From a virus (taxonomy: Duplodnaviria > Caudoviricetes), in the IMG/VR virus record IMGVR_UViG_3300034093_001431, positions 1-63,168 of that record: 63,168 nucleotides of DNA. One strand, 5' to 3'. The notes under the pieces were generated by a model. That model worked only from the letters and a program-made list of their open reading frames with translations, did no database searches and was not told the origin of the DNA. The position numbers were made by a program, and so were the translations under genes. Below, piece after piece: positions 3,945-63,168 of this stretch (positions are counted from its first letter, which is position 1; each line of letters starts with the position of its first letter).

Positions 3945-4369
3945 AGGCATCATTCTCCGGGTTTATATCAAGAGGAAAGATGGCAGTCCACGACAAGAAA
4001 GGGCTGAGCGACTTCGTGTCCGCCATCGACAACATGGACGTGATACTGACTATCGAGAAGAAGAAGAGGAAGCGGTCACTGAGCCAGAACTCCTACTACT
4101 TCTCGGTGGTCGTCCCCATGATCAGGTCTAGGTTTTTAGAGCTAGGTCACGACGTTAACATGAGCGAGACCCACGAGTTCTTGAAGACGAGGTTCAACAA
4201 GGTTGACATCATCAACGAGCACACGGGGGAAGTGTTCTCTTTCCCTCGCAGCACATCAGACTTGACGACAGTGGAGTTCATGGCTTACATAGAAAGGGTC
4301 CTCCTGTTTGCTTCGGAGACGCTTGAGATCACCATACCATCACCAAACACTCAGACAGAGTTGTTTTAG
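3941..4369 (+). CDS. NinB/DUF1367-like ssDNA-binding recombination protein
   Basis: RSLSQNSYYF...HEFLK...STSDLTTVEF..YIE; start moved to ATG 3941. Confidence 0.7.
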   Translation: MKASFSGFISRGKMAVHDKKGLSDFVSAIDNMDVILTIEKKKRKRSLSQNSYYFSVVVPMIRSRFLELGHDVNMSETHEFLKTRFNKVDIINEHTGEVFSFPRSTSDLTTVEFMAYIERVLLFASETLEITIPSPNTQTELF

Positions 4370-61154: not shown

Positions 61155-61211
61155 GGTTAAGACGGGCGCTAATTGCACCCGTTTCGACTAATTAAGTCTC
61201 GTCAGTTAACC
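61155..61211 (-). ncRNA. Type I hammerhead ribozyme (HHR-C)
   Basis: GGUUAA CUGACGA GAC-UUAAUUA-GUC GAAA CGGGUGC-AAUUA-GCGCCCG UC^UUAACC. Confidence 0.93.
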
Positions 61212-61676: not shown

Positions 61677-61922
61677 TTATTGATAAATAATTCTTGTTAC
61701 TGTTGCGACCTCGTCACCTGTGTGTAGTTGATAGGCTATGCCGTCAGTTTGGTAGTGGACCGTGTCGCCTTTTTGAAGGGTTTCGCTAGCTATGAAGAAC
61801 GAAACGTCGCCGTCCTCAGCTATTGCTATCCTGTTTTTAACGTCCTCGACCTTCTCAAAGGTCTCCTTTTCGCACGAAGCGAGCGCTGTTGCTAGCATTA
61901 TTGCTGTTATATATCTTCTCAT
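61677..61922 (-). CDS. Lipoprotein
   Basis: MRRYITAIMLATALASC lipobox. Confidence 0.75.
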   Translation of the reverse strand: MRRYITAIMLATALASCEKETFEKVEDVKNRIAIAEDGDVSFFIASETLQKGDTVHYQTDGIAYQLHTGDEVATVTRIIYQ

Positions 61923-61930
61923 ATTTTAAT

Positions 61931-61980
61931 GGTTAAGACGCCTCTCGGCGTTTCGTCCATACAGGACTCGTCAGTTAACC
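61931..61980 (-). ncRNA. Type I hammerhead ribozyme (HHR-B)
   Basis: GGUUAA CUGACGA GUCC-UGUAU-GGAC GAAA CGCC-GAGA-GGCG UC^UUAACC. Confidence 0.95.
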
Positions 61981-62220
61981 TATCACCAATTCGTACGCTT
62001 GGAACGACGGCTCGTACTCTCCGTGCTCAGCCATCATGTCGTCAAGTTCGTAGAACTCGGTGTTTCCGATAGCTTGTAACTCGTGAGAGACGGCTATTAT
62101 CGGGTGCTTATCTCCTCTTGTTGGGTGCTCGTAGAACGTGATGACCTGCCCGAGTGAGTTAGTCATTTCCCCTAGCTTGGTAGGGTTATAGGACATGAAT
62201 TTAGAATAACTTGTGTTCAT
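61975..62220 (-). CDS. Hypothetical early protein
   Basis: NSLGQ.I.FYEHP.RGD motif; flanked by two hammerheads. Confidence 0.7.
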   Translation of the reverse strand: MNTSYSKFMSYNPTKLGEMTNSLGQVITFYEHPTRGDKHPIIAVSHELQAIGNTEFYELDDMMAEHGEYEPSFQAYELVIG

Positions 62221-62236
62221 TTTTGTAAAATTTAAT

Positions 62237-62292
62237 GGTTAAGACGGCCACAATTGTGACCGTTTCGAATATTTAATTCTCTTCAGTTAACC
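62237..62292 (-). ncRNA. Type I hammerhead ribozyme (HHR-A)
   Basis: GGUUAA CUGAAGA GAAU-UAAAU-AUUC GAAA CGGUCAC-AAUU-GUGGCCG UC^UUAACC. Confidence 0.93.
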
Positions 62293-62474
62293 TGTTCTAG
62301 GTTGACGCGGTAGTCATATCCGACACCGCCCGCCTCTTTGCCGTCCCAATTGTCTAGGTTATGCACTTCGCACAGGGCCTGTACACACTTTCTCGCGTCG
62401 CCATAAGAGGCGTAGAGGAGGTTTATTGAGTCAGGCTTCTGCATGGATGATAGGACTACTTTGTAATTTGTCAT
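62283..62474 (-). CDS. First early gene, hypothetical (start MTNYKVV)
   Basis: Leader UAACCAAUUAAAUUUUAC nearly identical to that of the next gene. Confidence 0.65.
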   Translation of the reverse strand: MTNYKVVLSSMQKPDSINLLYASYGDARKCVQALCEVHNLDNWDGKEAGGVGYDYRVNLEQVN

Positions 62475-62489
62475 GATAGTAAAATTTAA

Positions 62490-62792
62490 TTGGTTAGCGG
62501 GACATGGGGCGCACGATGCCCCTTGTACGTTAACATGTGACCTACTCACATACCCCGTATCTCTTGCGTCGCCTCCCTGTCTATTTAACAGGCTCGGGTC
62601 AGTTTAGCTAATTAAAACGCTGTAGTATGTTTCCTACATTATCGGGCTGACTCCCGTCCTTCGCTTGCGCTAAGGCTAACCATCTTGAGTTACCGTGAGA
62701 TGGTGAAAGCACGTTTTATGTCTTCTACGTTTTACCCGATATCACATCGATGCTACACGTAAGGGTTGACTACTCAGTCCCTGTCGTTTGAC
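62490..62792 (-). ncRNA. Long structured, probably pseudoknotted leader RNA
   Basis: Several hairpins and crossing long-range complements; no credible ORF. Confidence 0.5.
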
Positions 62793-62797
62793 GTCGG

Positions 62798-62830
62798 CAA
62801 AGATGGGGTCATCGTTTTTAAATTTCCAAA
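62798..62830 (-). promoter_or_regulatory. Putative early promoter (TTTG-N21-CATCTTTG)
   Basis: -33/-7 Bacteroidota-type spacing with one mismatch in the -7 box. Confidence 0.5.
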
Positions 62831-63069
62831 TAAATTTTACATTAACCTTCTGAAAGGCGCAATTTATGCGGGTGAAATTTTTATTTTCTCAGTGTTTACG
62901 AGGGATGCAGGAGGGGAAAACACACTAAACCATTGCAAACACAGGTGGTTCAGGGGGCGCAAAGTAACACAGGTGAGCGCAATTTTGGTACAGGTTCCGT
63001 GTCAACAGGGGAGTAAAAGGGTGCCGATGACAGGGTGAAAGTAACTAGCGAGGGAGGAGGGGAGGAGGG

Positions 63070-63168
63070 GAGTAGAATAAGGGGGAGTGGAGGGGGAGTC
63101 ACACCGAGCCATGTTTACGCCATCCCTGTTCCACTTTCCACCACAACAGCACCACACCGCACCACTTT
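63070..63168. repeat. Terminal direct repeat (copy 2)
   Basis: Identical to 1-99. Confidence 0.9.

Follow-up and report, generated by a model that had tools for sequence, protein, structure and literature searches.

A conserved pseudoknotted leader RNA followed by a tRNA-like element at the head of a phage early operon: a candidate RNA gene and its predicted cutting signal

What is the non-coding stretch that stands between the promoter and the first protein gene of a phage operon otherwise punctuated by hammerhead ribozymes? The question is raised by a complete virus record of 63,168 bp (Duplodnaviria; Caudoviricetes; IMG/VR record IMGVR_UViG_3300034093_001431), which was analyzed at its full length and is referred to here as the window. 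On its minus strand, an operon of small genes with no assigned function runs leftwards from ~62.8 kb for ~10.7 kb, and gene 1 is preceded by a leader (62797-62475) that an earlier, sequence-only note (hereafter the original prediction) took for an undescribed large non-coding RNA occupying the place of a ribozyme. Our comparison identified a conserved, pseudoknotted RNA in this leader, followed by a 59-nucleotide (nt) element resembling a transfer RNA (tRNA). The reading frames in the leader were not conserved, and a coding reading was dropped; together with ten covarying sequences and no match in Rfam, this upheld the view of an undescribed large structured RNA. Judged from these comparisons, the core of the leader is a well-supported new structured RNA family.

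Homologues of the leader were collected by several routes. A pattern for the operon's hammerhead retrieved 120 viral loci (fetched loci carry handles such as L048), among which nhmmer with the leader as query found L048 (E 1.3e-28) and, weakly, L070. A motif common to the window, L048, and L070 was scanned and matched six stretches in viral contigs, eight in metagenomes, and zero in prokaryote genomes, and a looser form of this motif gave seven viral stretches. After duplicates and two chance matches were removed (L128, and L126, which is a real tRNA-Tyr), nine distinct sequences remained, the window included. A covariance model of the core (R1), searched against ~1.35 Mb of fetched loci and 60 whole records, then found the tenth and most distant member, L144 (77 bits), whose copy lies upstream of a gene 2 homologue. 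The ten sequences comprised clade A (window, L133, L048, L131, L122, and L124), clade B (L070, L125, and L127), and clade C (L144), with terminase identities to that of the window of 72% for clade A, 46-47% for clade B, and 35% (a partial match) for the L144 record. Exactly one copy of the core was present in each of five whole records searched, and among 50 other hammerhead-bearing records it was detected in only one, which was already known. Five records with a gene 2 homologue yielded no core with model R1, and blastn against GenBank phages returned no match for the leader.

The 117-nt core (62683-62567) contains five nested helices and an H-type pseudoknot formed by GUCAG and CUGAC. As a single sequence, the leader folded only moderately better than its shuffles (z = -2.58), and support for the fold therefore rests on the relatives and their covariation. 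In the ten-sequence alignment (A5), standard pairs were found in 95.8% of cells, as compared to 30-40% with partners slid by one to three columns, and 20 of 29 pairs changed on both sides; these values were reached by 0 of 500 shuffles, a count that should not be taken as a probability. The parts of the core, with the hairpin P1 that lies upstream of it and covaries within clade A, are as follows:

62679-62704, minus strand: P1 hairpin, ACCAUCU/AGAUGGU; pairs 104:124, 105:123, and 106:122 change on both sides (3 of 7, six clade-A sequences)
62658-62675, minus strand: P2 hairpin, CCUU..GCAA..AAGG, with a GNRA loop and an internal purine mismatch; all 6 pairs change on both sides, 81.7% of cells pair
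62643-62656, minus strand: S1 hairpin, CGGG/CCCG, whose 6-nt loop AGUCAG holds the 5' strand of the pseudoknot (62651-62647); 100% paired, 2 of 4 pairs change on both sides
62622-62637, minus strand: P4 hairpin, GUAG/CUAC, with an A-rich loop; 100% paired, 4 of 4 pairs change on both sides
62606-62621, minus strand: P4a, AGC/GCU, with a loop whose length varies; both sides change in 3 of 4 pairs
62598-62602, minus strand: S2b, CUGAC, 3' strand of the pseudoknot, with an invariant AAA before it; 100% paired, 2 of 5 pairs change on both sides
62576-62592, minus strand: P5 hairpin, CCUGU/ACAGG, with an invariant AAAUA loop and GAG on both flanks; 100% paired, 3 of 6 pairs change on both sides
62557-62575, minus strand: linker from the core to the tRNA-like element (sequence and alignment A2)

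The P2 loop reads G-N-A-A in nine sequences and GCGA in L144, and extra hairpins occur at P4a in clades B and C and in L124. The pseudoknot, whose 3' strand (62602-62598) lies 45 nt downstream of the S1 loop in the window, was paired in all ten sequences, with UA in five, GC in four, and CG in one at position 37:131, and CG in eight, AU in one, and UG in one at position 38:130. Because this helix was not included in the covariance model, the count is free of fitting bias. Loop 1 measures 1 nt and loop 2 measures 0 nt, with both stems supported, as in an H-type pseudoknot. For G33 and G34 there are two possible pairings, within S1 or as an extension of the pseudoknot, and the alignment supports both.

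Most pairings listed in the original prediction survived this comparison, while others did not. Five of its eight hairpins (ACCAUCU/AGAUGGU, CCUU..AAGG, GUAG/CUAC, CCUGU/ACAGG, and GGGGC/GCCCC) gained comparative support, and a sixth, GUC-AAAC-GAC, is conserved as described below. The hairpin GACU-GAGU-AGUC gained no such support: it falls within a clade-specific insertion, and a natural variant (U62776 to C) turns one of its pairs into C.A. For AUGUGA/UCACAU, the inner GUGA/UCAC was kept and the outer pairs compete with the acceptor stem of the tRNA-like element. The proposed double pseudoknot (A-B-A'-B' order) was reduced to its GUCAG/CUGAC half. In the other half, the 5' arm UAUCGGGU (62741-62734) belongs to an insertion found only in the window and L133, and the 3' arm GCCCGAUA (62647-62640) is the 3' strand of the covarying CGGG/CCCG, so that the pairing clashes with S1. 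The CGG/CCG extension, in the register first proposed, has two of its three pairs unpaired in two and three of the ten sequences, and this register is the weaker choice for extending the pseudoknot. Further tertiary or long-range pairings were considered. The P1 loop CACG (62697-62694) tentatively pairs with CGUG (62713-62710), for which inspection of the alignment by eye gave one compensatory change and one mismatch, in L124. Two other ideas were rejected. Closure of the core by a helix (the CGUGC region with GGGAG.CG) fails on an uncompensated change in L124. Between the P4a loop and the 5' ends of processed messenger RNAs (mRNAs), the matches were short and A/U-rich; moreover, a loop change in L131 was uncompensated, and L124 has no such loop.

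No part of the window matched Rfam 15 at the gathering thresholds, its pistol, twister, hatchet, HDV-like, riboswitch, and RAGATH families included, and an E-value search of 61700-63168, L048, L131, L126, L144, L077, L116, and L127 assigned the leader to no family, its best matches there (RAGATH-24, E 6.2; c-di-GMP-I-GGC, E 8.9) being noise. Known ribozyme models gave no match in the leader at E <= 10, and no self-cleaving core is present; specifically, neither the models nor a motif scan found a hammerhead core (CUGANGA...GAAA...UH) in 62475-62797. Identity with transfer-messenger RNA or the RNA of ribonuclease (RNase) P was rejected since neither model matched.

Where, then, does the transcript begin? 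Upstream of the RNA lie two boxes that match the sigma-A consensus of Bacteroidota, TTTG (-33) and TAnnTTTG (-7), as given in PMC7366714, and this match suggests a Bacteroidota host. The same two boxes occur upstream of the RNA in the homologues (exact TAnnTTTG in four), and the core is always the first element after a promoter of this type, whichever protein gene comes first. The leader RNA is accordingly placed as the first unit behind the predicted promoter, and the match to the consensus suggests a transcription start near 62794-62792, directly before a 5'-terminal hairpin:

62798-62830, minus strand: promoter-like site of the Bacteroidota sigma-A type, with TTTG (62830-62827), a 21-nt spacer, and CATCTTTG (62805-62798)
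62783-62792, minus strand: 5'-terminal hairpin GUC-AAAC-GAC, in nine of ten sequences (GUUC..GAAC in L127 and L144; not in L133, which has another promoter region)
62715-62782, minus strand: clade-specific inserted domain, containing GACU-GAGU-AGUC and UAUCGGGU

The inserted domain is carried only by the window and L133, is missing in L048 and L131, and is replaced by other sequence in L122 and L124. DNA contigs from four sequencing runs contained few variants in this region, most of them upstream of 62795. In L133 (3400-3440) and in one metagenome contig (run X4), the sequence upstream of 62795 was replaced and the RNA kept, which looks like promoter swapping at a sharp boundary.

At the other end of the leader, the slot before gene 1 is taken by the following element and short leader:

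62498-62556, minus strand: tRNA-like element of 59 nt, with acceptor GGGGUAU/AUGUCCC, a 27-nt middle, T-arm-like GGGGC-AUCGUGC-GCCCC (stem at 62522-62506), and discriminator G62498
62475-62497, minus strand: short A/U-rich mRNA leader CUAACCAAUUAAAUUUUACUAUC, preceding the gene 1 ATG (62474)

In the window, the middle holds a GUGA-GUAGG-UCAC hairpin and a second mini-hairpin. The layout of 7/27/5/7/5/7/1 nt is common to five of the six clade-A members; in L131, the middle measures 26 nt and the T stem includes one C.U. The acceptor forms 7 of 7 pairs in all six members, with three sequence types, and the T stem forms 5 of 5 pairs in five members and 4 of 5 in L131. The 5-nt loop of the clade-A mini-hairpin always ends in GG, and the second hairpin of the middle has 3 bp. 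A T-loop of UUCGA(G/C)(U/C) closed by G-C was found in four of the six (L048, L122, L124, and L131), and L144 carries a 75-nt version with a 43-nt middle and a T-loop fitting the consensus. The only Rfam matches to these stretches were weak (tRNA-Sec and Tymo_tRNA-like for L048, E 0.81-0.89; mascRNA-menRNA as the best match of the L144 element, 24.7 bits, E 0.0098, below the gathering threshold of 42.5). Between this element and the start codon, clade A has CUAACC and then an A/U-rich run. The 3' end of the leader was also examined for an intrinsic terminator, and none was found on the minus strand. On the minus strand of L122 (20-107), opposite to the strand of the leader RNA, an acceptor/T-arm structure of 88 nt, whose middle measures 57 nt, precedes G-CUAAC; ARAGORN does not call it a tRNA.

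The same operon contains three type-I hammerheads:

62237-62292, minus strand: hammerhead A, type I (RAGATH-1-hammerhead, 31.2 bits, E 0.0075, below gathering; core motifs seen)
61931-61980, minus strand: hammerhead B, type I (Hammerhead_1, 29.3 bits, E 9.1e-05, below the gathering threshold of 34)
61155-61211, minus strand: hammerhead C, type I (motif scan only)

In each of the three, stem I contains the upstream stop codon (for hammerhead A, that of gene 1), and UUAACCA(A)UUAAA with a start codon comes next. The leader CUAACCAAUUAAAUUUUACUAUC resembles those after the three hammerheads and after tRNA-like elements in other loci; an exact 20-mer of it returned no matches when searched. The end of the leader RNA, GUCCC-G-CUAACCAAUUAAAUUUUAC, likewise resembles GUC-UUAACCAUUAAAUUUUAC downstream of hammerhead A, as the original prediction had pointed out. 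Its further proposal that the leader fills the ribozyme slot of gene 1 was strengthened by the relatives: where all six clade-A members and L144 have the tRNA-like element, a canonical type-I hammerhead occurs in each of the three clade-B members. The distance from the core to this 3' module is 19 nt in clade A, about 130 nt in clade C, and about 190 nt in clade B. The exchange suggests that the tRNA-like element is interchangeable with a ribozyme as the 3' module.

Is this exchange peculiar to the head of the operon? To find out, we searched both strands of the window and of all 149 fetched loci (1.35 Mb in total, with ~120 loci selected solely for a hammerhead) for a 7-bp acceptor and a 5-bp T stem closed by G-C around a UUCRANN loop. 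The scan gave 30 distinct matches, as compared to 0, 0, 1, 0, and 1 in five shuffles. ARAGORN called 4 of them true tRNAs and 26 not, and in 20 matches the middle was only 10-20 nt long, leaving an acceptor/T-arm mini-helix. An open reading frame (ORF) started within 70 nt downstream on the same strand for 25 of the 30 matches (25% for random places), and 15 of the 30 lay between an ORF end and an ORF start (5.6% for random places). Because the scan itself required pairing, its evidential weight is limited to the excess over shuffles and to the gene context. L077 has four elements in a row, L116 has three (minus strand), L144 has two between early genes, and L127 (clade B) has one; those of three loci are placed as follows:

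L077, 2450-2490, 2966-3008, 3550-3591, and 4236-4279: mini tRNA-like helices of about 40 nt
L144, 2739-2782 and 3275-3318, and L127, 3652-3692: mini tRNA-like helices

These mini-helices, which are covered by no Rfam family, consist of a 7-bp acceptor, a bulge of 10-14 nt (with GG in the L144 copies), and a T arm with UUCGANN; they sit between small phage genes, each with an A-rich leader (C/U-A-A...) and a start codon after it. At L120 (10864-10937), a true tRNA-Arg (ARAGORN) has an ORF end overlapping its 5' end, a CUAAAU leader, and a start codon 17 nt after it. The operon in L077 with the four mini-elements also holds a twister-P1-like element (1247-1308; 47.9 bits, gathering 67.2, E 7e-08). 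In these phages, the slot made of a gene end and a short A-rich leader is thus filled by predicted ribozymes, tRNAs, or tRNA mimics. In L145 (2432-2482), a 51-nt element abuts a CUAAC leader and a gene 2 homologue; it contains the core words AGUCAG, CUGAC, AAAUAG, and GGGAG in a nested fold (z = -3.1) and could be another cutting signal or a small ribozyme. It was rejected as a second family member since no other copy was found in the 1.35 Mb.

What might such an RNA do? We hypothesize, with confidence about evenly balanced, that the leader is a stand-alone early non-coding RNA, released by host tRNA enzymes through tRNA-like punctuation and carrying a trans-acting core. Mechanistically, the first cistron of the early operon would be an RNA gene and not a protein gene. 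Host RNA polymerase would start at about 62794-62792, as the promoter match suggests, and the transcript would fold into the 5'-terminal hairpin, the optional inserted domain, the compact core, and the tRNA-like element. A cleavage of the RNase Z type is predicted after discriminator G62498, and possibly another by RNase P before G62556; non-tRNA substrates of RNase P include phage C4 RNA and operon mRNAs, according to PMC11143913. These cuts would release a stable structured RNA and would leave on the gene 1 message a short A/U-rich 5' leader of the kind that genes 2, 3, and 5 receive through cleavage by hammerheads. Once freed, the core might work in trans early in infection, as a folded accessory RNA that binds protein and serves host take-over or counter-defense. 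We favor such a trans-acting accessory RNA because members differ in their first protein gene, parts of the leader are present in some members and missing from others, and a relative has a different leader; this last fact, together with the five related records that yielded no core, also makes us favor an exchangeable accessory cassette over an element essential to the operon. The relative in question, L143, is a clade-B sister (46% terminase identity) with the same promoter type and a ~260-nt leader that contains no core:

L143, 2215-2480: different leader, ending in an element containing CUGAUGAG before CUAAACC

Several observations weigh against this hypothesis. A position right after the promoter fits a role in cis equally well. 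Nine of the ten sequences were retrieved by patterns fixing parts of S2b and P5, with only L144 found independently, so that the invariance of those columns is partly by construction, and the ten sequences represent effectively about four lineages. ARAGORN called no tRNA in the window or in the leader element of any homologue, and Rfam did not call the tRNA-like element of the window; the hairpins of the middle are only 3-4 bp long, and there is no full cloverleaf. The window copy is the least tRNA-like of the set: in the window and L133 the T-like loop is AUCGUGC closed by C-G, not the consensus UUCRANN closed by G53-C61, and the isolated 59-mer of the window prefers the longer hairpin of the original prediction, with only 3 bp of the acceptor formed. 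The changes between the window and L133 suit that longer hairpin and the acceptor equally well, and the best evidence for the acceptor therefore comes from the other clade-A members and L144. Among intergenic matches of the wider scan, the upstream stop codon overlapped the first acceptor base in 5 of 17 cases, where an RNase P cut would remove the stop codon; for this reason, the 3' cut may be the one that matters. Apart from these objections, prokaryote genomes gave zero matches to the clade-A T arm plus acceptor in that one exact form, so that no host copy or source tRNA of the element was found.

Four other explanations were considered, namely, in our order, an antiterminator, a riboswitch-like control, a ribozyme, and a spacer. 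HK022 put RNA and the Bacillus EAR element are known to act in processive antitermination, and a cis-acting element of this kind, in which the nascent core binds the polymerase and carries it through hairpins and terminators of the operon, would explain why the RNA sits directly behind the early promoter in one copy per genome, whatever gene follows. The EAR element is also pseudoknotted, both known elements are folded RNAs in the leader of a long operon, and there is much for such an element to overcome here: the hammerheads are strong hairpins, terminator-like sites occur at 57192-57167 and 52089-52062 (minus strand), and L048 and L124 have GC-rich hairpins with UUU between early genes. However, all ten members place a cleavage module between the RNA and the genes, which would untie the RNA from the polymerase, and the different leader of L143 and the five related records with no core would be odd for an operon-essential element. 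The leader has no sequence or model similarity to put or EAR and no Rfam match of any kind, and we regard antitermination as unlikely. A spacer without function of its own, either a shield against Rho or RNases for a lengthy 5' untranslated region or a remnant of recombination, would agree with the other long leaders at the same place in related phages (L143 and L145) and with leader parts that come and go. Yet phages with terminase identities as low as 35% still share invariant unpaired nucleotides and show compensatory changes, which a mere spacer would not preserve, and we give this explanation the least credence.

The remaining two would make the core itself an active device. As a riboswitch-like sensor, it would bind a small molecule and decide the folding or cutting of the 3' module; its size and GNRA loop, the pseudoknot, and the invariant unpaired A-rich loops do resemble large aptamers, the alternative pairing of G33 and G34 could be the switch, and the tRNA-like element of the window has a competing fold. 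Yet no helix closes the two ends of the core, the stretch between core and 3' module varies greatly between clades in length (19 to about 190 nt) and sequence, and the RNA is tied to no gene family, the first gene differing among members. The only riboswitch matches were noise (c-di-GMP-I-type, E 8.7-8.9), and a sensor appears very improbable. We think equally little of a new ribozyme, self-cleaving or otherwise catalytic, which was one of the roles suggested in the original prediction, although the RNA is located among hammerheads, its complex conserved fold has many invariant unpaired bases, and the 51-nt L145 element with the same words abuts a CUAAC leader: every member has a separate, recognizable cutting module downstream that would make a self-cleaving core redundant, no known ribozyme model matched at E <= 10, and the L145 element is nested rather than pseudoknotted, with no second copy in 1.35 Mb.

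Returning to the hypothesis of a released early RNA, we also consider a bolder and more doubtful version, in which tRNA-maturing enzymes and ribozymes would be interchangeable scissors and the first released RNA a new class acting on the host before any phage protein. Such a view would cover true tRNAs, mimics of 59-75 nt, 40-nt mini-helices, hammerheads, and twisters in the same early-gene slot. If true, phage hammerheads, which have long been puzzling, would simply be mRNA punctuation, and the released RNA could be, for example, a decoy for a defense or RNA-decay factor, or a polymerase-binding RNA.

How do these elements compare to known systems? The principle of tRNA-shaped cutting signals is already known from mitochondria and from MALAT1/mascRNA; what is new is the attached RNA family, absent from Rfam 15. 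In the mascRNA system (MALAT1 and MEN-beta, RF01684), a small tRNA-like cloverleaf with no working anticodon arm is the cutting signal for RNase P and RNase Z after a long structured RNA, to which the predicted cutting of the phage element is alike. That system is eukaryotic and nuclear, however, and the phage element would also free a downstream mRNA. In mitochondrial tRNA punctuation, tRNA-shaped elements between cistrons mark the cuts, and stop codons overlap in some cases, whereas the phage elements are mostly 40-75-nt mimics rather than tRNAs and are mixed with hammerhead and twister ribozymes. Phage regulatory RNAs that RNase P cuts include the C4 RNA of P1/P7 and the P4 CI RNA, each of which is processed from the leader of the operon to which it belongs. 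C4 is listed as an RNase P substrate in PMC11143913, and the likeness here extends to predicted cutting. The C4 and CI RNAs differ in being antisense RNAs of about 80 nt with known targets in the same transcript; no convincing target pairing was found for the leader RNA, and a C4 match in the window (63076-63145, plus strand, E 4.7) was dismissed as noise. Perreault et al. 2011 (PMC3088659) proposed that clustered hammerheads flanking phage genes divide long transcripts into mRNAs of gene length, and the operon design is the same here, with several type-I hammerheads between short phage genes; the leader differs in lacking a hammerhead core and in having a tRNA-like element in the slot. Our literature searches found no report of tRNA-like punctuation in phage operons. 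A catalogue of 10,006 candidate viral RNAs (PMC10690425) may hold the core motif.

The finding matters as a new RNA family at the start of what is probably the earliest transcript of uncultured lake-water phages, probably infecting Bacteroidota. An RNA made before any protein would be a good candidate for immediate counter-defense. The swap of hammerhead and tRNA-like element at one slot is a natural experiment on the purpose of phage hammerheads: should a cutting signal for host enzymes be able to stand in for these ribozymes, their role would be plain transcript cutting. If confirmed, mini tRNA-like punctuation would be a bacterial-virus counterpart of mitochondrial punctuation and mascRNA processing, and would provide operon design in Bacteroidota with compact cutting signals that depend on host enzymes.

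The remaining features of the record and its relatives are as follows:

52089-52062, minus strand: strong terminator-like hairpin with a 12-bp stem and a T run, the apparent operon end
57192-57167, minus strand: second terminator-like hairpin, inside the operon
63020-63168 and 1-99: 99-bp direct terminal repeat and the C/T-rich tract beside it
L048, 965-1010 and 1390-1440, and L124, about 4200-4245: GC-rich hairpins with UUU between early genes

The early operon thus probably ends at the first of these hairpins. PHROGs and Pfam searches of the first 10 early genes gave only phrog_11770 (function unknown) for gene 2 and a sub-threshold Pfam match to GXGXG for protein 9 (E 0.0022), and the gene 1 protein had no relatives among viral contigs. 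In the clade-A relatives L048 and L124, the place of hammerheads between early genes is taken by a repeated GC-rich hairpin (GCCCCGC..GCGGGGC) with UUU, followed by a leader of the UAAC..AAUUAAA type. The DNA runs containing the leader stretch are lake-water and freshwater metagenomes. On the minus strand, a C/T-rich tract with repeated CCCCTCC-like words adjoins the terminal repeat. The plus strand carries structural and replication genes, including a primase/helicase, a large terminase, a portal, and a GroEL-like chaperonin encoded by the phage itself (1518-3107; phrog_5725, E 8.6e-171).

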